From positions 76,059 through 140,058 of the forward strand of contig CAIJZX010000012.1 of NCBI GenBank assembly GCA_903825245.1: DNA of 64,000 nucleotides. The letters are read 5' to 3'. The notes under the pieces were generated by a model that had not been told where the DNA came from, ran no database searches, and saw nothing but the letters and a program-made list of their open reading frames with translations. A program made the translations under genes and the position numbers. Position 1 is the stretch's first letter; each line of letters starts with the position of its first letter. This document shows, one piece after another, positions 6,534 to 64,000 of the stretch. The DNA is from Candidatus Kerfeldbacteria bacterium. Lineage in GTDB: Bacteria; Patescibacteriota; Patescibacteriia; SBBC01; CAIJZX01.

Positions 6534-7274
6534 TCACTTTGTGCTTCGCGAGACCTTTGTCCGCCGCGGCTTCTTCATCTGATCTTCGTGTTGATCGACA
6601 AAGGTCTGCATGTCCCGATCAAGCTTGGGCGACCATACCATGCCGAGGCACGGCAGAGCTTCCACCAGGGCTCGCAGTTTCGGGATCTGATTCCCAAGTA
6701 CGTGCATGGCAACTCGCACATTCTTCTTCTGCCGATACTGCTCCCAGGCATACACGAGGTAATCGTATCGCTCGACGAAGTCGAAAAACTGCGCTTCGCG
6801 GCGGCAGGTCATGCTGAGATCCGACATGATAACCTGCGCTTCGCGCGGGAAGCGGGAGTAGTCCTTCAAACAGAACTGCAGAAGATAGGCCTGCTGAAAC
6901 GACAGTGTGCTCCAGCCATGTTCCTTGAACAGCCGGAGGAAGGCCTTGTACTCAGCCACGTCGCTAGCCTGGCTCTTGTTGTTGTACAACACATCGCGAC
7001 GCAGAACGCCTTCAGGAATGTCGTGAACGATACAGGCGCTCAGTAGAAGACCGACATCGAGACTTGACTCCAGGCCGCTTCGGCCAATGACATTCTTCAT
7101 CATCAAGGCCAGACCCAGAGTGTGTTGCGTCGAGGTCTGACGCCGCACGCTTGGCCGGCGCCGCAGGAACACGCTCCACCGCACCACCTGATTCAAATCT
7201 TCTTGAACCGAGATCCAGGGCGCGAGTTCCCGATCGAGTTCATTCAGCGGCAGTGCTTTGCCATTTCGAGACAT
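6534..7274 (-). CDS. HD-domain phosphohydrolase-like protein
   Basis: H..LGLALMM...VHDIPE resembles the H...HD metal-binding pattern. The gene lies in a GC-rich patch. Confidence 0.4.
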   Translation of the reverse strand: MSRNGKALPLNELDRELAPWISVQEDLNQVVRWSVFLRRRPSVRRQTSTQHTLGLALMMKNVIGRSGLESSLDVGLLLSACIVHDIPEGVLRRDVLYNNKSQASDVAEYKAFLRLFKEHGWSTLSFQQAYLLQFCLKDYSRFPREAQVIMSDLSMTCRREAQFFDFVERYDYLVYAWEQYRQKKNVRVAMHVLGNQIPKLRALVEALPCLGMVWSPKLDRDMQTFVDQHEDQMKKPRRTKVSRSTK

Positions 7275-22418: not shown

Positions 22419-22743
22419 AGGACAAGAGAGGTAACTAGCCCAGAACTATGCAAACATGATTATCATACTCGTTTTATTGCTATAAAGCCATAATTGCTAA
22501 CCCGAGGTAATTAAACTATAATTCAATCTGTTTCCGAGGCCTAGATGCTCATTTCTACAATTTACTTAGCCTAAACTTCGGCCTATGGCCGGGGCACGGC
22601 GATCAAACCAAGAGAGGCGAACAGCTCCTAGTCAGAGCACCTCTCTTGGTCGTGCGTGGAAACGCGCACGGGTGGCCGTAAGGTCATCGCTGGCTAGGGG
22701 CTTTGTGTTTGTACAAACCCGCCGCCAGATATTTACAAAATAT

Positions 22744-53091: not shown

Positions 53092-54276
53092 TTACTTGAT
53101 GATCTTCGTTACCACGCCGGCGCCGACTGTGTGGCCACCTTCGCGAATGGCGAAGCGTTGCTGTTCTTCAAGTGCGACTGGAGTGATGAGCTTGATGACG
53201 AATTTCATCTGGTCCCCAGGCATTACCATTTCGGTACCAGCCGGTAATTCGATTTCGCCAGTCACGTCCGTGGTGCGAATGTAGAATTGCGGTTTGTAGC
53301 CTTTGAAGAACGGTGTATGTCGTCCACCTTCTTCTTTGGAGAGGACGATGACCTCAGCTTCAAACTCGCTGTGCGGGGTAACTGTACCTGGCTTAGCTAG
53401 CACTTGACCGCGTTCGACATCTTCTTTCTTCGTACCGCGGAGGAGTAAACCAGCATTATCGCCAGCCACACCAGAATCCAATTGCTTGTTGAACATTTCG
53501 ATACCAGTCACGACGGACTTGGCGGTCGGTTTCAGACCGACGATTTCCACTTCGTCATTAATCTTGATTTCACCGCGTTCGATACGACCCGTAACAACGG
53601 TACCGCGACCTTCAATCGAGAAGATATCTTCAATTGGCATCAAGAACGGTTTATCGGTCGCGCGCTTCGGTTCCGGAATGTATTCATCGAGCGTCTTCAT
53701 GAGCTCCATGATTTTTTCCTGGTAGGCCGGATCGCCTTCCAAAGCCTTCAATGCTGAACCGCGGATGATCGGGGTGGTATCGCCTGGGAAATCATACTTC
53801 TTTAACAAATCGCGGATTTCGACTTCGACGAGGTCAATCAATTCAGCATCATCAACCGTATCGCACTTGTTCAAGAAGACGACGATGTATGGTACACCGA
53901 CCTGCTTGGCCAAGAGAATGTGTTCGCGGGTCTGCGGCATCGGACCGTCAGCGGCCGAAACAACGAGAATTGCACCGTCCATTTGGGCAGCACCGGTAAT
54001 CATGTTCTTGACGTAGTCGGCGTGTCCTGGACAGTCGACGTGTGCGTAGTGACGATTCGCTGTTTCATACTCAACGTGGGCCGTAGCAATCGTAATACCG
54101 CGAGCCTTTTCTTCCGGTGCGTTATCGATATCATCAACGCCTTTCGTTTGCGCGATGAATCCCTTATCGGCTAATGTCTTGAGAATAGCGGCCGTTAATG
54201 TGGTCTTACCATGGTCGACGTGACCGATAGTACCAACGTTGACGTGCGGCTTACTGCGATCAAATTTTTCTGCCAT
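53092..54276 (-). CDS. tuf: elongation factor Tu
   Basis: [27 protein letters not shown] matches EF-Tu. The start at 54276 is internal to the ORF-track extension. Confidence 0.95.
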
Positions 54277-54325
54277 AGACTCGTTTGCGCTAGTTAGAAG
54301 AAAAAGGTTACAGAAATGCCTGGCG

Positions 54326-54354
54326 ATTATAGCAGGGCTTGATAAACTTGGCAA
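54326..54354 (-). promoter_or_regulatory. sigma70-like promoter for tuf
   Basis: On the minus strand TTGCCA is separated by 17 nt from TATAAT, about 50 nt upstream of the tuf ATG. Confidence 0.45.
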
Positions 54355-54611
54355 GTGTCTACCCTTCAACCACAAGATCTAAACGAGGAAATTTTCAATT
54401 TTGGCTAATGTTAGCCTTTTTTTAATTTTTCCTGAGTTTTTTCCAAAAAATACACTCCATTTTCCGTTATACGCCTATATTTTAGCTAAAATTAGCCATT
54501 TTTTTATCCACAGGCTGTGGACTAACTTTTATTGAACTAACCATCAAAAATTGACTAATTCCATAAAAAGCCTAGTGTTCATGGGCGCTGATCTTTGACA
54601 ATGGAGGTTCG

Positions 54612-54989
54612 ATGCATCAACTGACGCCAAAGGACGCATCTGTACTTGCGATCGTGGTTGAGAACCCGAAGATGTCCGAGCGGCAATATCAAAGGCTGCT
54701 CACCCACGTCACTGACCCGGAACTACGGGAGCTCATCGGTGCTATTCGGGACAAGGATCTCGAAAAGCCTTTGACCGATCGTACGTGGCAATTTATCCCT
54801 GTTATACAAGATATTGAGGCTTGGCGTACCGCCAACGAAGGTCGACGCGGTCCAAACAACCGAACGCAGGAGGACGCAATGTATGGATTGGTAGGTGCAC
54901 TGATACTTCTTGGCGTCGGGTGGGGCGGTTTTAAACTGCTGACGTGGTCACTCGACAGACGTATTCGTCGGGTCAAGAAGCGGGTATAG
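54612..54989 (+). CDS. hypothetical protein with a C-terminal TM anchor (GC-rich small-protein operon, gene 1)
   Basis: GGAGGT lies 5 nt upstream of the ATG. The protein is 125 aa. Confidence 0.35.
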   Translation: MHQLTPKDASVLAIVVENPKMSERQYQRLLTHVTDPELRELIGAIRDKDLEKPLTDRTWQFIPVIQDIEAWRTANEGRRGPNNRTQEDAMYGLVGALILLGVGWGGFKLLTWSLDRRIRRVKKRV

Positions 54990-55175
54990 GAGAATCGTGA
55001 TGAGCACGAGAAGGTCTCTGAGAAGGTACCGTTCACTCGCGCCACGGAGATTACGGCGAGCTACTAGTAAAGCAGAGCTGGAAAGAATGATGCTCAAGCA
55101 CTTTCCATGGATGTCGATGATATCGAAGTCGACCCCCAACAAGAGCCAGTAGCTCAAGGGAGACGAGGAAACGCT

Positions 55176-55421
55176 ATGAACAAGCGCTCAGCTATCCCGA
55201 CTCCGCACGGACTTCGGCTGAAACGCGGCAAGAACGGAATCTTCACTGCACCCGATCCCGGTCCGGAAGCTCAACGTGAGGCAGTGAAACGAGCTTTTCC
55301 TGACACGAATGTGGATCCGCCTGAATCCAACGACAACACGATCATCTGCGATGAGTGCGGATGGCGTGTCGAGAAGGAACGAACCTGCTCGAACTGCGGC
55401 AAGACTATGTCGTGTCCATAG
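55176..55421 (+). CDS. small zinc-ribbon protein
   Basis: The likely start is the internal Met MNKRS. The C-terminus has CDECG....CSNCG. Confidence 0.35.
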   Translation: MNKRSAIPTPHGLRLKRGKNGIFTAPDPGPEAQREAVKRAFPDTNVDPPESNDNTIICDECGWRVEKERTCSNCGKTMSCP

Positions 55422-55430
55422 GAGGAAGCT

Positions 55431-55631
55431 GTGAGAACCTTCATCAGGCTGTTACCTGTGTTCAGCCTGTTCGTGATCATTTGCGGCCTGGTATTCGCCT
55501 TCACATATCCGGAAAGACTAAATTTTGGACGAATCGTCGCTTGGGCGTTTCTCAGCTATTTCCCGATCTCAGAAACTGTCTCCAAGTGGAGCGATCGTTT
55601 CATAACAAAGTCCGGATCGGCGAACTTGTGA
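55431..55631 (+). CDS. small membrane protein (66 aa, two TM helices)
   Basis: The protein is hydrophobic. Confidence 0.3.
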   Translation: MRTFIRLLPVFSLFVIICGLVFAFTYPERLNFGRIVAWAFLSYFPISETVSKWSDRFITKSGSANL

Positions 55632-55671
55632 CCACCGCCAGTAGCAGTTTGTGCCCTCAAGAGGAGGCTCC

Positions 55672-55827
55672 ATGCCGAAAGCAGGCGTAGTAGTATCCGA
55701 GCAGATGGTGGCAAGAATGTTCTGCGGCGGAATCATTGGCGCACTGGTTGCGTCATTCCTGGGTCCCGAAGCCATCTTCGTGGGCGCGATCTTCGGTGCC
55801 GCGGCAGGTTTCGCAGTCACTCCGTGA
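55672..55827 (+). CDS. small membrane protein (51 aa, Gly-zipper-like)
   Basis: AGAGGAGG lies 6 nt upstream of the ATG. The ORF is not in the track because it is under 60 aa. It translates as MPKAGVVVSEQMVARMFCGGIIGALVASFLGPEAIFVGAIFGAAAGFAVTP. Confidence 0.3.
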   Translation: MPKAGVVVSEQMVARMFCGGIIGALVASFLGPEAIFVGAIFGAAAGFAVTP

Positions 55828-55850
55828 TCAACTCAGAAGTCGTGGGAGGT

Positions 55851-55976
55851 ATGATGGAATTCCTCGCTGCAGTTGCTACCGTCTGTCTCTTGACCGCAGT
55901 CATGACGCTCGGGATACTGCGCTATGGCCACATCGCCTTCCAGGTCATGGGTCGTATCATGGGTATCGCGAAGTAG
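55851..55976 (+). CDS. small membrane protein (41 aa)
   Basis: GGGAGGT lies upstream of an ATGATG start. It translates as MMEFLAAVATVCLLTAVMTLGILRYGHIAFQVMGRIMGIAK. Confidence 0.3.
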   Translation: MMEFLAAVATVCLLTAVMTLGILRYGHIAFQVMGRIMGIAK

Positions 55977-56030
55977 TCTGAACTACAACGTTACACACAA
56001 ACGTACAACCACCCCGCTAGCACATCGCTC

Positions 56031-56058
56031 GCGGTTTTTTTATGTAAGAAAAAACCGC
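56031..56058. terminator. bidirectional rho-independent terminator between convergent operons
   Basis: GCGGTTTTTT-tatgtaag-AAAAAACCGC has A/T tracts on both sides. Confidence 0.5.
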
Positions 56059-56092
56059 ATATCACCAGGACATACGGTTCGGTACAAAGAGC

Positions 56093-57115
56093 TTAGCTGA
56101 GCTGAGCGAGAAGCCCCTGAATCAGCGGAACGTCGCTGTCATTACCCAGACGACGATCGATAGCCAAAGACTGCTGGTACAACGCCCGGGCTTGTTGAGT
56201 CTCTCCTCCGCGAGCGTGGAGCGCTTCGGCGCGGCGGAAACATGACAAGGACTGGAGTGCGAGGTACGCTTGATTACTCGACGATTCCCCTAGCAATTCT
56301 TCGACAATGGAAAGCGATTTTTCGAAAGCGTCATCCGCCTCGTCAAATCGGTTCATCATCCGCAACAGCAAACCCATTTCTTCGTAGGCGGTGGCGATAT
56401 TCTGCCGGTGTTTATTCGTCACCATTCGAAACGATCCGCCAAAACTATTGATGTACAGTTTGCCGCCCATACTCTTGACGGTCATCATTTTGCCGCAAAA
56501 CGGACATCCACCCATTCCGCCGGAACCGGGATCGACCGGCACTTCTCCAGACATCCCGCAGTTAGGACAACCAATCCGCGCAGTACCGCGATACGAAACA
56601 TTGACCTCATCAAGATCAATGATTTTGGTACGCGTGCTGGTAGTTGTGCCTTTTTCCTGAGCATCAATGGACCGTTTGAACATGCGCAGAGCTTGCTGCG
56701 CCGCCGGAAAATTTTCCAACACCTGTGCATCACTACCCATCCGAACACCAGGCCGGTAATGTCGAGCGGTCCAGAATGTGGTTCTGAGGATGGCGCGGTT
56801 GTAGTCATACAAACCCGCCGCCAACACCACGTGACGGAAGAAATACATCCACACGATAGGCGGCCCGAAGAGAATCGCGCTGGTCACCCACAAATGCTGA
56901 TTGTTCAGGTAGTGGAATTCCAGGTGAAACTGCTTTTGCAGTAGACCGGCCGCCAACAACGTCAGCATGCCAACCATACTTGCTCCGACTGCCCGAGGGT
57001 TCAGTGGCCGCTGCAGACCCATTTCCCACAGTCCGTATCGCGCCCATTCGGTGGTCAAGACGCAGTTACAGACCAGTAAAATCGCCAACACGGCATATTC
57101 CACGCTCATAGTCAT
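56093..57115 (-). CDS. membrane protein with a CxxC...CxxC zinc ribbon and C-terminal TPR-like repeats
   Basis: Four N-terminal TM helices are followed by CPNCG...CPFCG and then helical TPR-like repeats. Confidence 0.45.
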   Translation of the reverse strand: MTMSVEYAVLAILLVCNCVLTTEWARYGLWEMGLQRPLNPRAVGASMVGMLTLLAAGLLQKQFHLEFHYLNNQHLWVTSAILFGPPIVWMYFFRHVVLAAGLYDYNRAILRTTFWTARHYRPGVRMGSDAQVLENFPAAQQALRMFKRSIDAQEKGTTTSTRTKIIDLDEVNVSYRGTARIGCPNCGMSGEVPVDPGSGGMGGCPFCGKMMTVKSMGGKLYINSFGGSFRMVTNKHRQNIATAYEEMGLLLRMMNRFDEADDAFEKSLSIVEELLGESSSNQAYLALQSLSCFRRAEALHARGGETQQARALYQQSLAIDRRLGNDSDVPLIQGLLAQLS

Positions 57116-57118
57116 CCC

Positions 57119-57607
57119 CTATTCCCTAATGGCTTCAACAAACGAGAACATCCGGCTCATCGCAAAATTCGCGAAGAACATGATAAGGGTGACGCCCACC
57201 GTGATAAAAATCCGACCGATTGACGTCTCGGAAAGAAAGTGTCCTTGCGTCGCATACGCGGTGATCGTGCACACGATCCAACACAATCCGCCGACACTCA
57301 TCGAGAAGTGGCCACGCGGAAAGGTAGCGTCGTTATTCAAACCGACAAACAACCCAATAGCCAATCCGGGAATCGTGCCGTACCGAAGCGTCTGCTGCCA
57401 GATAAACGCCTGAACACCATCAGGCAACATCAACTCCGGCGACGTAATCGGTCCGCAGATGAGGAATTTTGCCGGAAGCAGGTAGTACAAAGAACCGAGC
57501 AAGACACCGAGGATGGCACCAGTCAGAACTGAAAGGCCGAGATTGTATCGCATACACCCTCCATTGATATGGATAGGCTCCGGGACTTGGAACAAATTGT
57601 CAAACAA
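57119..57607 (-). CDS. polytopic membrane protein
   Basis: The 162 aa protein has four TM helices. Confidence 0.4.
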   Translation of the reverse strand: MFDNLFQVPEPIHINGGCMRYNLGLSVLTGAILGVLLGSLYYLLPAKFLICGPITSPELMLPDGVQAFIWQQTLRYGTIPGLAIGLFVGLNNDATFPRGHFSMSVGGLCWIVCTITAYATQGHFLSETSIGRIFITVGVTLIMFFANFAMSRMFSFVEAIRE

Positions 57608-57727: not shown

Positions 57728-58348
57728 CTATCTGATTGTCGGCTGTGTTGCCTCGTCGAGGTGTGTTGAGTCGTTGATAATATGGGCGACGTGGGAGTCA
57801 TCATCGCGCATTTGGACAATCGTTACGCCGGTGTTGACGGTCCGAATTGGCGGATCTTTCTCGTAGTCTTGTTTCAGCAAATACACCAGCAGGGCACGAA
57901 TAAATCCCATGTGTGAGACGACCAGCACGGTTTTTCCCGCATATTCTTTCCGAAACTGTTGAATGAAGTGCGCAGCCCGGTCTCGCGTTTCCAACATTGA
58001 TTCACCATTGACCGGGCGATACTCATACCATTTCACGCCGCTTTTTTCGGCTGCGGCCATAAATTCTTCCCGCGGCTTGCCTTCCATCTCGCCCATGTGG
58101 CGTTCGCGAAGATCTTCGCTGATATGTAAGGCAATCCCCGGATGAAATTGCAAAATCCCCTGCGCCGTATCGCGCGCCCGCTCAGCGTCGCTCGTAAACG
58201 CGGCATCAATGTGTTCGTTTTTTAGCCGGTCAGCCACGCGCTCAACTTGTGCTTTTCCTTTTTCCGTCAGACGCGATGGACCGTGCGCGACCATCAGCGG
58301 TCCGACGTTATGTTCCGCTTCAGCGTGACGTACAATGATGAGTTTCAT
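57728..58348 (-). CDS. histidine phosphatase (phosphoglycerate-mutase-like) family protein, paralog 2
   Basis: MKLIIVRHAEAEHN and a later VVSHMGF second-His motif are present. Confidence 0.65.
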   Translation of the reverse strand: MKLIIVRHAEAEHNVGPLMVAHGPSRLTEKGKAQVERVADRLKNEHIDAAFTSDAERARDTAQGILQFHPGIALHISEDLRERHMGEMEGKPREEFMAAAEKSGVKWYEYRPVNGESMLETRDRAAHFIQQFRKEYAGKTVLVVSHMGFIRALLVYLLKQDYEKDPPIRTVNTGVTIVQMRDDDSHVAHIINDSTHLDEATQPTIR

Positions 58349-58458: not shown

Positions 58459-59085
58459 TTACGCGTTTTCTCCTTCTTCGTTAACATGTGTAAGATGACT
58501 AACGTCATTTATTAACATTGGCTTAGCCGGTCCTTGTATTGGAATGTCGAGTATCGTTACAGCCGTATTGTGATGATGGTATTCTTCTTTTTCCACATCA
58601 GCACCTTCTTCGAGCGCCCATTCCATCAATGTTGAAAGAAAGAGTCCATGGCTAACAACTACCACCGTGCGTTTTGCATCGCGAACACGATGGTCCTCAT
58701 ACCATCGCCGCGCACGTTCTTTCACCTCGCGCATTGACTCGCCACCCTCCGGTTTCCAATCGCGAAAATGTTGCCCGGATTTTATGAACGCTTCTTTTTT
58801 TGCTACTACCGGCTGGTGGGTAAAAACACCCGAATCCCGTTCACGAAGTTCAACTTCTTGTGCCTGTTTTGCTTCCGGATGATGTTCAGCGATGAGCGAT
58901 GCCGTCTGTTGGGCGCGAATCATATCGCTCGAATAGATGATATCGATTTGTTCATCAGCCAAACGCCGAGCCACAGCCGCCGCTTGACTTAGACCTACCT
59001 TATTCAATGCCATATCACTCGATCCAGCTAGTGTTTCAGATACGTTTCGATCGGTTTCGCCGTGACGGACGATAATGAGTTTCAT
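58459..59085 (-). CDS. histidine phosphatase (phosphoglycerate-mutase-like) family protein, paralog 1
   Basis: MKLIIVRHGETDRN and VVSHGLF motifs are present. Confidence 0.7.
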   Translation of the reverse strand: MKLIIVRHGETDRNVSETLAGSSDMALNKVGLSQAAAVARRLADEQIDIIYSSDMIRAQQTASLIAEHHPEAKQAQEVELRERDSGVFTHQPVVAKKEAFIKSGQHFRDWKPEGGESMREVKERARRWYEDHRVRDAKRTVVVVSHGLFLSTLMEWALEEGADVEKEEYHHHNTAVTILDIPIQGPAKPMLINDVSHLTHVNEEGENA

Positions 59086-59597
59086 GGTTGCAGAATTTGC
59101 TCCCAGCCACCGTTTGGTGCCGTGCGCACAAATACAGACAGTTCTTCGATGTTACAGCTACCTTCTACGGTTTGAGATTGAACTGCGTCCCAAACCGATT
59201 GGAAAACATTATCCGGAATGTTGTTGGCAACGGTAACATGATACACAGAATCTCTTCCTCCCCGGTATTGACCGCTATCAAGGTGCTCAAGTTCCGGAAA
59301 TTTTTGGCGCAACTCCTTGGAAACACTTCTTAGCTCTTCTTGTCCTGGGTCAAGCCAAAGGACACTATGCTCGAGATGATGAAATGATTGCCATCCCTGA
59401 AAGGTAATATTCAGGGTGTAGCGGGTTGTGAAGATATGTTTTTTGATCGCTCCAGGTAAAGCACGAAATGGCGGAATAATCGTGATATGCGACGGCAATG
59501 TACTCTTCGTCCAACGATCGTATTTTTTTCGCAGCTGAACAAGTTGCGTTTGAAACGGCTCGGGTAAAACAGCGATAATGACATACTCGTAACCCAT
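59082..59597 (-). CDS. 2H phosphoesterase superfamily protein (LigT-like 2'-5' RNA ligase / cyclic phosphodiesterase)
   Basis: Two H-x-T-x motifs (SHITIIPP about residue 36 and YHVTVANN about residue 127) sit at typical spacing in a 171 aa protein. The 4-nt overlap with the downstream phosphatase gene indicates an operon. Confidence 0.6.
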   Translation of the reverse strand: MGYEYVIIAVLPEPFQTQLVQLRKKYDRWTKSTLPSHITIIPPFRALPGAIKKHIFTTRYTLNITFQGWQSFHHLEHSVLWLDPGQEELRSVSKELRQKFPELEHLDSGQYRGGRDSVYHVTVANNIPDNVFQSVWDAVQSQTVEGSCNIEELSVFVRTAPNGGWEQILQP

Positions 59598-59743: not shown

Positions 59744-61822
59744 TTAGGCCTTCGCTTTATCCCCCACAATCGCTTCCGCCACGTTGCGCGGAACTTCTTG
59801 GTAGTGCGAGAATTCCATTGAGTATGATGCGCGGCCTTGGGTCATGGAACGAATTGCTGTTGCATACCCGAACATTTCGCCGAGCGGCACGTGAGCATCA
59901 ATAACTTTCGCCTGGCCGCGGTTGGACATTTCGTTAATGACCGCGCGCTTCGCGTTCAAGTCGCCGATAACGTCGCCCATATTCGCTTCCGGCGTAATGA
60001 CTTCTACTTTCATGATTGGTTCAAGCAATACCGGTTTGGCTTTGCGGCAGGCCTCTTTGAAGCCCATCGAACCGGCGATTTTGAAAGCCGCTTCAGACGA
60101 GTCAACGTCGTGCGATGAACCATCGAAGACTGTCGCCTTTACGTCGACCATCGGATAACCGGCGACCACGCCGTTGTCCATAGATTCTTTAACGCCTTTT
60201 TGAATTGGTTGGATGAATTCTTTCGGAATTGAGCCACCTTTTACTTCGTCGATAAATTCGAAACCTTTGCCTTTTTCATTCGGTTCAACGCGGATCCAAC
60301 AATGGCCATACTGACCGCGTCCGCCGGACTGCTTGATGTATTTACCTTCACCTTCTGCCATTTGGGTAATTGTTTCACGATAGGCAACGCGTGGCCGGCC
60401 AACATTGGCTTCAACTTTAAATTCACGCTTCATACGATCAACAATGATGTCGAGGTGGAGTTCACCCATACCGGAAATAATCGTCTGGCCGGTTTCTTCA
60501 TCACCGTGCACGCGGAAGGTCGGATCTTCTTCCGCCAATCGCGAGAGGGCCATGCCCATCTTTTCTTGGTCTTGTTTCGTCTTCGGTTCGATCGCGATGT
60601 CGATCACCGGTTCCGGGAAGACAATGTTTTCGAGTTTCAACGGATGATCCGGATCGCACAGCGTATCACCGGTAACCGTTCCCTTCAAACCGATAGCGGC
60701 GGCAATTTCACCGGAGAAAACTTCGTCCACATCTTCACGTGAGTTGGCATGGAGTCGAACGATACGGCCAATGCGTTCTTTATTGCCAGTGGTCGTGTTC
60801 AAGACATACGAACCTGCGGCTAAATGGCCGGAGTAGACGCGGAAGAACGCCAACTTACCAACGAACGGATCAGTAGCGATTTTAAACGCGAGGGCAGTGA
60901 AAGGCGCGTCATCGCTGGCCGGACATTCAATTTCGGCGTCCGTTTTCGGATCAGTACCGACGAGTGCTTTCACGTCAAGCGGCGACGGCAGGTAATCATT
61001 GACGGCATCGAGAAGGAATTGCACGCCTTTGTTCTTCAAAGCTGAACCGCAAAGCACCGGCACTAAGGTGTTGGAGATGACCGCTTTGCGCAAGGCGGCT
61101 TTCATTTCGGCAATTGAGGGTTCTTTACCGCCGAGATACATTTCTAAAAGTTTATCATCCGTTTCACAAACCGCTTCCACGAGACGGTGGCGATATTCTT
61201 CCACCTTGTCTTTCATGTCTGCAGGAACATCGGTCTGTTCAAACTCTTTACCCATTTCATCTTTGTAGATTTCGGCTTTGCGCTCGAAGAGATCGATAAT
61301 ACCAGTGAAGGTTTCGGCGGCGCCGATTGGCAGTTGTACCGGATAAGCGCTCGTCGTTAAGCGTTCATGAATCGACTTGATGTCAAAATAAAAGTCGGCG
61401 CCCATACGATCCATCTTGTTGATGAAACAAATACGCGGGACATGGTACTTTTCCGCTTGATGCCACACTGTTTCCGATTGCGGTTCTACGCCGGCTACAC
61501 CGTCGAAGACAACCACGCCGCCATCGAGCACGCGGAGAGAACGCTGCACTTCGACCGTAAAGTCAATGTGTCCCGGGGTATCAATAATATTGATACGATG
61601 GTCTTTCCAGAAACAGGTCGTGGCGGCGGCGGTAATCGTAATACCGCGTTCTTTTTCCTGTTCCATCCAGTCCATTTCGGCCGCACCCTCGTGCACTTCG
61701 CCGATTTTGTGCTTCTTGCCAGTATAGAAAAGAATGCGCTCCGAGACGGTGGTTTTTCCCGCGTCAATGTGAGCGATGATTCCGATGTTACGGGTTTGTT
61801 CGAGAGAGTATTCACGTGCCAT
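59744..61822 (-). CDS. fusA: elongation factor G
   Basis: The N-terminus is [16 protein letters not shown]. The protein is 692 aa. Confidence 0.95.
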
Positions 61823-61833
61823 ACAATATGTCC

Positions 61834-62649
61834 TTACTGTTTAACGAAATCAATCAATTGTTGAAGAGAAAAGTTTGTCGATTTTTGTCCGGTCGTCGGA
61901 TCGACGTTAGCGGTCAGAATTTTCTTGCTTTGATGTAAATACCATGTCCCCGGTTCGAGCGCATTCAGTTTTGCGTAGAGCTCCGTTAAATCGACATCGC
62001 TAGCGGCCGGAGCGCGGAAATCACCGAACGGCTTCGTCGGGTCGGTTTGGACGCGAAGGAGAAAATTGTGGTGGTAGGCGATCGCATCGGAACCTCGGAA
62101 ACTGCTATGGACACCGACCGCTTTACCCCATTTCGTATCGAATTCAATCCGCTGATCCCAATCTTTCAAAAATTTTGCGCGTTCATTGAGCTGAGCAACT
62201 ACGGCAGCCACGATATCAATACCCTTCTTCATCAAAATCTGGTCATCTTGTTCTATCATCCAAATCCCGCGCAGAATTGCCGGAATGGAAAAACTCGTGT
62301 AATTCGGATCGGTAATTTCCCATTGCCCAGTATCTTCTTTATGGGCGTAATCAACGAGCCATTCAATCGCCTTATCTTCATACTGGTCGTTCGGAATCAA
62401 CCCGCGATGCATCAAGTCTTGATAGACGAGCTGATTGCACGAGTGGCCGACTTTGAGTCCGTGTTCATCAAATTTTCCACGACCGACACCGATCGCTAAA
62501 TAGTTATCCCCGGTCGGAACATTGTGGCCATCAGTCGTATAGCCAACAAATTCAAATGTCGCGTCTTTCAGCGAGGGATCGAACGTGGTGAGTAGCCAGG
62601 CAGCTACAACTTCGTCGAGGTGTGGCTTTTTGTGGGTGACAATAATCAT
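61834..62649 (-). CDS. hypothetical protein, possibly a MYG1/UPF0160-like metal-dependent hydrolase (tentative)
   Basis: The N-terminal [19 protein letters not shown] resembles the MYG1 THxxxxHxDExxAxxLL pattern. A FDEHG motif follows. The 4-nt overlap with the upstream gene supports the start at 62649. Confidence 0.35.
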
Positions 62650-63350
62650 GATTGTTCTTTGTGCTGTTCGCGCCAATCAGAAGTGGCTTTCAACATGCTT
62701 GTATGTTCATCGTTAAGTTTATCTTGGGCTTTCTTTAAACATCGTGCTACAGCTTGTAATGTATATGAATCAAAATTGCGGAGCTTCACATCATCCTTTA
62801 ATACCGCAGAAACCTGTTCCATAGGAATTTTTCCTAACAATGTGCCAACATCTTGATAGGTCGTTTCAAAGATGTTTTTTGATTTGGTAACGATCTTTCG
62901 CATCGAATCCGGAACCGTGGTAACAGCAATATCCGCCATCATGGCAAGAATGTCTTGATAAAAGCCCGGAACGGATTCTGCATATTGCGGAATTTCGCGG
63001 CGTGCCTGTTCCTGGTCGTTCAACTCATGTGATTCAACATGATCGTTGATATGCCGCAGAGCCGTATCACTGGTTACCACTTGGGTGGCGACATACGGGT
63101 GCTCGGCTTGGAGACGTTTTTGAATATCGGCAATCGTATCCGGATCCGGATGTTCTTTCTTTTGCTCAACGGATAATTCGTCAATTAACACATCAACAAC
63201 ACTTAGCGGATCGCCTTCGATCTGCTCGGCGTGCTTCGCCATAATTTTTCCGGCAGCTTGAACTGCGGACTCATGATCGATGTCCGTGCGAAAATGGTTC
63301 TCACGCTCTGCGGAGAACTCGTCGAATCGGCCGGTGTCAGGATCGGACAT
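62646..63350 (-). CDS. acidic hypothetical protein embedded in the str operon
   Basis: The 234 aa protein is translationally coupled to both neighbours. No domain was recognised. Confidence 0.4.
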   Translation of the reverse strand: MSDPDTGRFDEFSAERENHFRTDIDHESAVQAAGKIMAKHAEQIEGDPLSVVDVLIDELSVEQKKEHPDPDTIADIQKRLQAEHPYVATQVVTSDTALRHINDHVESHELNDQEQARREIPQYAESVPGFYQDILAMMADIAVTTVPDSMRKIVTKSKNIFETTYQDVGTLLGKIPMEQVSAVLKDDVKLRNFDSYTLQAVARCLKKAQDKLNDEHTSMLKATSDWREQHKEQS

Positions 63351-63353
63351 AGT

Positions 63354-63842
63354 CTATGCTCCTTCCTCTCGCAAATGTACGGCCAGTCGCTCCTTGAGCG
63401 CAAGTACCTGACTATGCAATTGTAATAATCTAAATATGGTCACTTGAGGGTCAATCTTGCTAGCCGTTTCAGGATTCATTATTTCTCTAAAACGCTTGAT
63501 ATCTTCTTGTAAATCTTCACCGTATGCCAGCCACATATCTTCAAGTGTACTGCCGGGTTTTGGCCAATGATCTTTCATGAATCTAAATATCTCCTCATAA
63601 TTTTTCGGAATCGCTTTAATTGCTTCATTCCATTCAGGGAGTTCCTTTTCAAGTCGATGTAACTTCATTTGGTTCCGATCAGCACCAAGTACTTGTTGCT
63701 CGTTTAATGCACTTTCAAGCTCTCGAATAACATTTCCCGGTAAAAAAACATTACGATCAGCCTGTTCAGACTTCGGTGTAATTCCTTCAGCTGTCCGATA
63801 CTCTTCCGGCGATAATCGACCGCCCGGTTCCTGTTCGCCCAT
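63354..63842 (-). CDS. hypothetical protein embedded in the str operon
   Basis: The 162 aa gene starts 5 nt after the rpsG stop. Confidence 0.4.
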   Translation of the reverse strand: MGEQEPGGRLSPEEYRTAEGITPKSEQADRNVFLPGNVIRELESALNEQQVLGADRNQMKLHRLEKELPEWNEAIKAIPKNYEEIFRFMKDHWPKPGSTLEDMWLAYGEDLQEDIKRFREIMNPETASKIDPQVTIFRLLQLHSQVLALKERLAVHLREEGA

Positions 63843-63847
63843 ACGCG

Positions 63848-64000
63848 TTACGCGAAGTGAGCAAACGCGCGGTTCGCTTCAGCCATACGGTGGACGTCAA
63901 GCTTCTTCTTCATAGCATCACCTTGTCCGGTTGAAGCCAGAACCAACTCTTCGGCCAACTTGATGGCCATCGGACGACCTTTCTTCGATCGAGCAGCATT
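63848..64000 (-). CDS. rpsG: 30S ribosomal protein S7 (C-terminal part; 5' end beyond the window)
   Basis: The minus-strand frame reads ...[43 protein letters not shown], which matches the S7 C-terminus. Confidence 0.8.

Follow-up and report, generated by a model that had tools for sequence, protein, structure and literature searches.

A predicted DHH/DHHA1-superfamily protein lies between rpsG and fusA in the str operon of Candidatus Kerfeldbacteria, at junctions that also appear to gather fast-evolving orphan genes

The canonical str operon has the order rpsL-rpsG-fusA-tuf, and S7-mediated translational feedback is established for it in E. coli. In the 64,000-nt stretch of DNA analyzed here (contig CAIJZX010000012.1; hereafter, the window), which derives from an uncultured groundwater bacterium of Candidatus Kerfeldbacteria, the genes for ribosomal protein S7 (rpsG) and elongation factor G (EF-G; fusA) share a strand, as in the canonical operon, with rpsL before rpsG in related loci and with tuf and the S10 gene further downstream in the window. 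However, one conserved and two accessory genes split rpsG from fusA, and ~5.4 kb splits fusA from tuf. The order on the minus strand is rpsG (3' end), open reading frame 1 (ORF1), ORF2, gene X and fusA (Table 1), which raises the question of what the three interposed genes encode and how they came to lie there. An earlier, sequence-only reading of this DNA had suggested that all three ORFs encode new translation factors; we found that only X is conserved across the lineage, leaving that claim unsupported for ORF1 and ORF2. Our results instead suggest two layers. X would be an old, conserved DHH/DHHA1 enzyme that is fixed in the Kerfeldbacteria str operon (rpsL-rpsG-X-fusA) and made in step with the translation apparatus, and ORF1 and ORF2 would be younger, lineage-specific genes for acidic proteins, drawn from unrelated orphan families that repeatedly colonized X's two junctions. 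We are confident that X is a DHH-superfamily protein and a fixed str-operon member; the two-layer explanation as a whole, with X as an old str-operon hydrolase and ORF1 and ORF2 as younger genes, is moderately probable.

Contigs of at least four separate ENA samples share this gene order and encode 100% identical proteins, so the arrangement is not an assembly artefact. The portion of rpsG within the window translates to a sequence 98% identical to the S7 of one related locus, and full-length rpsG on the identical contig contains the Pfam domain Ribosomal_S7. All EF-G Pfam domains were found in fusA of the identical contig, and the EF-G of the window shares 82-95% identity with those of related Kerfeldbacteria loci. 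The sequence-only reading had described three same-strand, tightly spaced ORFs between rpsG and fusA, which held, and had named an isolating promoter/terminator pair as grounds for refutation, which did not appear: successive spacings from rpsG to fusA are 5, 3, -4, and 11 nt, terminator-like sites or hairpins were not found on the minus strand from 63850 to 61822, and the sole promoter-like match between the two genes (63454-63425, inside ORF1) scored 9/12. Promoter-like matches over the scanned region numbered 10, compared with 8.3 ± 3.0 in shuffled sequences, i.e., they were at chance level, in a scan for sigma-70-type sites only that may not apply to bacteria of the candidate phyla radiation (CPR; Patescibacteria). 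An Rfam scan of the insertion region returned no RNA element. Considering the 11-nt and ATGA spacings, and that terminators were not found, X most likely shares a transcript with the S7 and EF-G genes and is translationally coupled to them; the scope of the promoter scan, and the fact that co-transcription and coupling are both read from spacing, count against this conclusion.

X belongs to a family that is widespread in CPR bacteria and so far uncharacterized. It has 66 close relatives in a protein database clustered at 90%, and its named homologues are proteins of Candidatus Kerfeldbacteria and other Patescibacteria. When 1.84 billion representatives were searched exhaustively with a profile, 909 clusters (at 50% identity) were recovered at E ≤ 1e-3, and 114 reached E ≤ 1e-30. 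Family members are mostly 265-290 aa long, and all those bearing a name are annotated "hypothetical protein." An AlphaFold2 model of X, built with 28 homologues (predicted local distance difference test, pLDDT, 92.5; predicted template modeling score, pTM, 0.85), has an alpha/beta N-domain, a long helix at residues 136-164 and an alpha/beta C-domain, and in it the N-terminal domain shows the DHH fold and the C-terminal domain is of DHHA1 type. When the model was compared to the PDB with Foldseek, the top matches were NrN, family II pyrophosphatase, NrnA, RecJ, Cdc45, PPX1 and the C-Ala region of alanyl-tRNA synthetase (AlaRS), with TM-scores that were low because the two domains are differently oriented. 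Four relatives of X (P0161, P0156, P0141, and P0128) also match Pfam DHH below threshold, at 17-22 bits against a cut-off of 28.1 (E 1.6e-4 to 7e-3). In profile searches of the PDB, neither the 28-sequence X alignment nor a single long family member gave a match, and 104 diverse family members gave 6mtz as a weak best match (E 0.0055). The latter is an uncharacterized structural-genomics protein of Helicobacter pylori G27, longer than X at 347-355 aa, with no function or publication known, and is therefore uninformative as to activity. A literature search covering 6MTZ, PF09828/ChrB_C, nanoRNase in Patescibacteria and DHH in CPR likewise yielded nothing relevant. As modeled, X is a two-domain protein of the DHH/DHHA1 superfamily that constitutes a separate family of its own. 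Two long members with the variant metal site described below, P0215 (353 aa) and P0216 (360 aa; from Candidatus Paceibacterota), contain an internal insertion and a Cys-rich C-terminal tail (C..G.C.S....CPW...G..RC) that looks like a candidate zinc-binding extension.

Wherever the flanks of a Kerfeldbacteria locus were readable, X was preceded by rpsG and followed by fusA, over X identities of 43-100%. Some nine distinct loci show rpsL-rpsG-X-fusA alone, closely spaced and free of additional ORFs, and since these include the most diverged loci (L006, L008, L099, and L100, in our numbering), this order is the ancestral state. The order rpsG-X-fusA also occurs in two lineages outside Kerfeldbacteria (L030 and L131; X identity 31-36%). 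Elsewhere in the CPR, the upstream neighbor is a class II aminoacyl-tRNA synthetase of the D/K/N type at 18 of 44 loci, whose ~500-aa length suggests lysyl-tRNA synthetase (LysRS). Downstream neighbors were scored at 58 loci and include DnaG primase, a small nucleotidyltransferase-like gene and a family 4 (GT4) glycosyltransferase, each at 10, as well as EF-G, seryl-tRNA synthetase (SerRS) and a CCA/poly(A) polymerase-type nucleotidyltransferase, each at two. One relative of X with the canonical metal site lies directly 3' of the prolyl-tRNA synthetase (ProRS) gene, within an rpsB-tsf-frr cluster. The theme shared by these contexts is that of housekeeping information-processing operons, often of translation, which is consistent with an RNA- or nucleotide-turnover enzyme that is needed generally. 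An apparent fusion of X to DnaG in L035 (885 aa) was rejected as an artefact, a 100-N run at 6742-6850 joining two ORFs. Separately, many loci labeled "uncultured Gammaproteobacteria bacterium" (L014, L015, L016, L019, and many others) carry Kerfeldbacteria- or CPR-like str operons with X, and the labels of those metagenome-assembled genomes look wrong.

The putative metal site of X, in the N-domain, comprises H6, H10, D12, E13, G54, D61, E62, H63, and D106. Its first part lies in the N-terminal motif T5-H6-x3-H10-x-D12-E13-xx-A16-xx-L19-L20, which the sequence-only reading had given as THxxxxHxDE in a 272-aa protein; X has 271 residues, with three rather than four between the two His. Across an alignment of 104 family sequences, H6, D12, D61, H63, D106, and W236 never vary, and 103 of the sequences have H239. 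A sister subfamily of 61 sequences has canonical DHH motifs (H-x2-P-D-L-D-A, V-D-T-G, and D-H-H), with D10, A/G/S13, D54, and H62, whereas the remaining 43, which include X and all Kerfeldbacteria, have H10, E/D13, G54, and E62. The four positions covary completely, with zero overlap or intermediates between the two classes. Expressed as DHH motifs I-IV, X reads PHLDE, GVG, DEH, and D106, compared with PDLD, VDTG, DHH, and D106 in the sister subfamily; it keeps motif IV and half of motifs I and III, and the motif II Asp is lost. The carboxylate count of the site is nevertheless unchanged in the variant class, two carboxylates having shifted. In a neighbor-joining tree computed without the switch columns, all 61 canonical sequences fell into one clade together with four long-branch variants, and since the tree clusters the canonical sequences, the switch would be old and would have occurred once or a few times. 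Relative to the sister subfamily, the metal site of X would thus have been rewired from D10/A13/D54/H62 to H10/E13/G54/E62. Because the number of carboxylates is kept while their positions move, we infer a working site with different chemistry as opposed to a dead one, i.e., a metal centre that is functional and remodeled, not decayed. A precedent for H10 is provided by MYG1, a DHH-motif 3'-5' RNA exonuclease that acts on rRNA (PMC6582341), as the D-to-H change in motif I is also present in that active enzyme.

Table 1. Features of the rpsG-fusA region and of the genes downstream of fusA, in window coordinates.
Feature	Coordinates	Strand	Remarks
rpsG (ribosomal protein S7), 3' end	63848..64000	-	continues past window edge; stop codon 63850-63848
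ORF1 (family A)	63842..63354	-	162 aa; begins 5 nt past rpsG stop
ORF2 (family B)	63350..62646	-	234 aa; begins 3 nt past ORF1 stop
ORF2, first eight codons (MSDPDTGR)	63327..63350	-	putative captured start of ancestral X gene
Gene X	62649..61834	-	271 aa (272 codons including stop); ATG overlaps ORF2 stop by 4 nt (ATGA)
X, N-terminal DHH-like domain (predicted)	62245..62649	-	~residues 1-135; from structure model and invariant columns
X, C-terminal DHHA1-like domain (predicted)	61837..62157	-	~residues 165-271; invariant W236-x-L-H239 motif
fusA (EF-G)	61822..59744	-	692 aa; begins 11 nt past X stop
LigT-like 2H phosphoesterase	59082-59597	-	between fusA and tuf
Two tandem His_Phos_1 paralogues (histidine phosphatases)	58459-59085 and 57728-58348	-	between fusA and tuf
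Unassigned 162-aa ORF	57119-57607	-	between fusA and tuf
Tetratricopeptide repeat (TPR) protein	56093-57115	-	between fusA and tuf
tuf	53092-54375	-	S10 gene next

The closest known systems are the small DHH/DHHA1 phosphodiesterases, namely NrnA, a nanoRNase and adenosine 3',5'-bisphosphate (pAp) phosphatase (4ls9, 8iu7, 5ipp), the pApA phosphodiesterase TM1595 (5o1u), PggH (7d62) and an archaeal PAP phosphatase (8a8k). These enzymes show no significant sequence match to X, are longer (~310-320 aa vs. 271 aa), have a D/A/D/H metal site in place of H10/E13/G54/E62, and carry GGGH in the C-domain where X has WxLH(Q/H)SK; by sequence (DHH plus DHHA1 with GGGH), X falls outside the NrnA-type nanoRNases. 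Likewise, NrN (9lq9; PMC10600005), a CRISPR type III-B phosphodiesterase of S-adenosylmethionine-AMP (SAM-AMP), shares 6-9% sequence identity with X and has a canonical DHH triad (D85/H86/H87) instead of DEH. It adjoins corA and cmr genes, whereas X resides in housekeeping translation/replication operons with no CRISPR genes nearby. X may be a divalent-metal-dependent phosphoester hydrolase of small RNA-derived or nucleotide substrates (nanoRNA, pAp, or dinucleotides), and its likeliest role would be that of a housekeeping phosphoesterase for short RNA or nucleotides. Catalytic activity of X is rather probable; the choice of short RNA or a nucleotide as its substrate is more tentative, and we place it a little below even. 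Several points weigh against an enzymatic X. No substrate or activity is on record for any family member, and X gives no match to Pfam DHH (PF01368) or DHHA1 above the gathering score. The one Pfam model that it passes is ChrB_C (PF09828), marginally (26.5 bits vs. a cut-off of 25; residues 4-150). In addition, G54, i.e., loss of the motif II aspartate, could point to a non-catalytic ligand-binding protein, and the neighbors of X outside Kerfeldbacteria are mixed (synthetases, primase, GT4 glycosyltransferases) and indicate no single pathway.

Alternatively, X could be a non-catalytic DHH-fold protein that binds a ligand or an oxyanion and serves the translation machinery as sensor or adaptor. 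Of the classical metal-site residues, three are changed (D10H, D54G, and H62E), and the inactive DHH-fold proteins Cdc45 and C-Ala, which set a precedent, are among the structural matches. The lone Pfam match is shared by 21 of 28 X relatives (best E 1.3e-7) and supplies a possible precedent, in that ChrB is a chromate-responsive DNA-binding regulator whose C-terminal half has been proposed to sense chromate (PMC3817168). ChrB has a ChrB_N domain, for which X gives no match, and X has an extra DHHA1-like domain; no chromate transporter gene (chrA) was present among the X neighbors in the loci examined. The replacement residues, His and Glu, retain metal-binding chemistry, the new carboxylate at position 13 keeps the count of acidic ligands, and the motif I change is, as noted, found in active MYG1. 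Furthermore, H6, D12, D61, H63, D106, and H239 are invariant over the 43 variant sequences, which are mutually highly divergent. Weighing both sides, we consider a non-catalytic X unlikely.

The sequence-only reading had called ORF1 and ORF2 acidic and without a recognizable domain, and so they are: their isoelectric points (pI) are 5.1 and 4.9, respectively, and neither has a significant match in Pfam, NCBIfam, PHROGs, or PADLOC. A search of 5.8 billion proteins yielded two homologues of ORF1 (66-67% identity), each lying directly 3' of rpsG (L171 and L172). The proportions of non-synonymous and synonymous differences (pN/pS) between ORF1 and these are 0.15/0.66 and 0.17/0.58; the corresponding ratio of substitution rates (dN/dS), 0.10-0.18, is rough, dS being saturated in all genome pairs, and pN was compared with pS instead. 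A family-A profile made from ORF1, P0069, P0070 and the L091 ORF recovered a diverged member that follows rpsG in L094-L096, a set of redundant loci. ORF2 retrieved itself only in a word-indexed homologue search, but in tblastn and hidden Markov model (HMM) searches of the fetched loci, family members emerged in L171, L089, and L015 (36-39% identity) and, at greater distance, in L018, L014, L091, and L098. Between the window and L089, dN was 0.67 for ORF2 vs. 0.053 for X, a ~12-fold difference, and ORF2 pN (0.44) was below a saturated pS (0.71). Within the same genome pairs, ORF2 evolved 4-12 times faster than X. A single-sequence AlphaFold model of ORF2 consisted entirely of helices, with a pLDDT of 47, and was unusable for a fold search. 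Judged by these substitution patterns, ORF1 and ORF2 are real genes under purifying selection, which in ORF2 appears weak. In L018, from a Kerfeldbacteria metagenome-assembled genome (5284-6817 of CAVSWO010000002.1), frameshifts split both an ORF2-like gene (into 141 + 99 aa) and X (into 61 + 262 aa); these are either assembly errors or genuine pseudogenes.

Conservation in related genomes had been set beforehand as a check on all three reading frames; the position of X was conserved, but ORF1 and ORF2 were found in a subset of loci only. Family B, to which ORF2 belongs, lies before X in L089, L015, and L018, inside the X start in the window and L171, and after X in L014 and L091. A third orphan family occupies the X/fusA junction in L010 and L172, and further unclassified orphans lie near X in L004, L009, L010, L011, and L012. 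Throughout the relatives, orphan ORFs always adjoin X, in either the rpsG/X or the X/fusA gap, and ORF1 and ORF2 are absent from rpsG-X-fusA loci such as L090, L093, L016, L017, L097, L008, and L006. When orphan families A, B and C were compared by hhalign with one another and with the unclassified orphans, the sole link to emerge was a weak one, of L009 to family B (E 3.7e-4), and paralogues of the orphan families were not found elsewhere in the window. From this distribution, ORF1 and ORF2 are taken to be later, lineage-specific additions, with the junctions of X forming a hotspot for fast-evolving orphans.

It could be argued that ORF1 and ORF2 nonetheless encode novel factors associated with ribosomes or translation, or proteins that partner with or regulate X, and that they are required alongside S7 and EF-G. 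Their tight coupling to rpsG, X, and fusA would agree with this, as would the purifying selection on both and the constant placement of the relatives' orphan ORFs beside X. Yet both are missing from many Kerfeldbacteria that retain rpsG-X-fusA, at least three mutually unrelated families use the site, ORF2 diverges several-fold faster than X, and no domain was found in any library scanned, so that such a role is improbable. The opposite possibility, that ORF1 and ORF2 are non-functional, either ORFs that arose by chance or passengers of a mobile element or of a prophage remnant, could draw on their orphan status, patchy distribution, variable position, and, for ORF2, very fast evolution. It is hard to reconcile with pN below pS in both genes (ORF1, 0.15 vs. 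0.66; ORF2, 0.44 vs. 0.71) and with frames that stay open in several diverged genomes. Moreover, no flanking repeats, PHROGs or PADLOC matches, integrase, or composition shift beyond local noise were detected, and we give this explanation very little weight.

The ORF2/X junction suggests how one such gene may have entered the operon. In L090, X starts with ATG TCG GAT CCT GAC ACC GGC CGC AAG GTC ATC GTC ACC CAT (MSDPDTGRKVIVTH), and in L172 it starts with MSDPATGPRVIVTH; both follow the pattern ATG TCN GAT CCT GNC ACC GGN CNN, continuous into the ...VIVTH codons. The window and L171 both have these eight codons (MSDPDTGR) at the start of ORF2 instead of X; the ORF2 start in the window is ATG TCC GAT CCT GAC ACC GGC CGA. 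The X of the window restarts ~677 nt later (...CAA TCATGATT ATT GTC ACC CAC), with an ATG that replaces the ancestral ninth codon. Since X's eight start codons open ORF2, the latter appears to lie within the 5' end of the ancestral X frame. ORF2 would have taken over the ribosome-binding site and first eight codons of X, which restarts at ATGA; on this model, ORF2 uses the X initiation region and translation is handed back to X via the stop-start overlap. An insertion is more likely than a deletion because basal loci lack family B yet have an X with the MxDPDG extension, and later losses and moves of family B must also be invoked. Flanking direct or inverted repeats around the insertion were not found, nor were mobile-element genes at the ORF2 junction. 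A 12-nt palindrome (AATAATCATGAT / ATCATGATTGTT; window 62641-62656) is centred on the ORF2/X ATGA overlap and may be due to chance or related to the junction. As a separate observation, the ORF directly after rpsG, be it X, family A, or family B, starts with MG[DE]x[DE]..G or M[SGD][DE]PD[GT], which suggests that the post-rpsG initiation region may be reused by each newcomer ORF.

The resemblance to MYG1 that the sequence-only reading saw in X is genuine but local, and it stands insofar as X is a predicted metal-dependent hydrolase of the same DHH superfamily, but X is not a member of MYG1/UPF0160. Both proteins have an H-x-D-E motif I, with His for the first Asp, followed by a hydrophobic A-xx-LL helix, and both have a conserved C-terminal His (H239 in X; H344 in human MYG1) thought to mark RNA-acting members (PMC6582341); the placement of X among translation genes might also be cited. 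However, Pfam MYG1_exonuc (PF03690) matched 0 of 28 X family members even at E ≤ 10, and X itself gave none at E ≤ 1. Alignment of the X family profile to human MYG1 with hhalign gave a probability of 0.55% (E 0.11) and aligned segments that are not homologous, the single-sequence template limiting sensitivity. The human MYG1 sequence used was validated by its Pfam MYG1_exonuc score (458.7 bits) and a near-perfect match to PDB 24ah. Catalysis by MYG1 is defined by the motif II Asp and the DHH triad (human residues 106-108; PMC6582341), both of which it keeps, whereas X lacks the motif II Asp and has D61-E62-H63 in place of DHH. The His spacing differs as well, motif I of MYG1 being THNGTFHCDE (TH-x4-H-x-DE) and that of X THKKPHLDE (TH-x3-H-x-DE), and the MYG1 core is ~55 residues longer than X. 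For these reasons there is very little chance that X trims rRNA as a bacterial 3'-5' RNA exonuclease of the MYG1/UPF0160 type.

Among the genes that separate fusA from tuf (Table 1), the 2H phosphoesterase (2_5_RNA_ligase2) after fusA recurs in L004, L006, and L008. In L006, the 2_5_RNA_ligase2 gene lies beside an AAA_33 kinase plus His_Phos_1 gene; this set resembles an RNA-end healing set, and the context of the 2H phosphoesterase may hint, weakly, at RNA-end metabolism. The ~1.7 kb from the TPR gene to tuf (54376-56092) contains no ORF >125 aa on either strand and no Rfam match; a 104-aa plus-strand ORF at 55107-55421 shows a weak match to a zinc ribbon. Far from this region, at 22568-22688 on the plus strand, the window contains a full-length match to the LOOT RNA motif of Rfam (RF03000), at 79.1 bits compared with a gathering score of 46.4.

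Returning to X as an old str-operon hydrolase, a fuller version of this reading can be sketched, in which X is a CPR-specific, translation-linked RNA/nucleotide phosphodiesterase, with nanoRNase, pAp phosphatase, or tRNA/rRNA 3'-end trimming as candidate activities. Its rewired dinuclear DHH centre would use a different metal or mechanism, its expression would be stoichiometrically tied to S7 and EF-G, and the inserted acidic proteins would serve as lineage-specific modulators. As a complete scheme this is speculative, and we would not expect all of it to hold. CPR bacteria account for a large share of bacterial diversity and have very small genomes, in which many core functions are without an assigned gene, and X is a good candidate to supply a housekeeping step of RNA or nucleotide turnover that is still missing. 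The four-position switch of its metal site would offer a natural experiment in the rebuilding of a DHH centre. Finally, the ORF2 junction would represent a clear, sequence-resolved case in which a newcomer joined an essential, highly expressed operon via a resident's start, and as such bears on how orphan genes come to be expressed.

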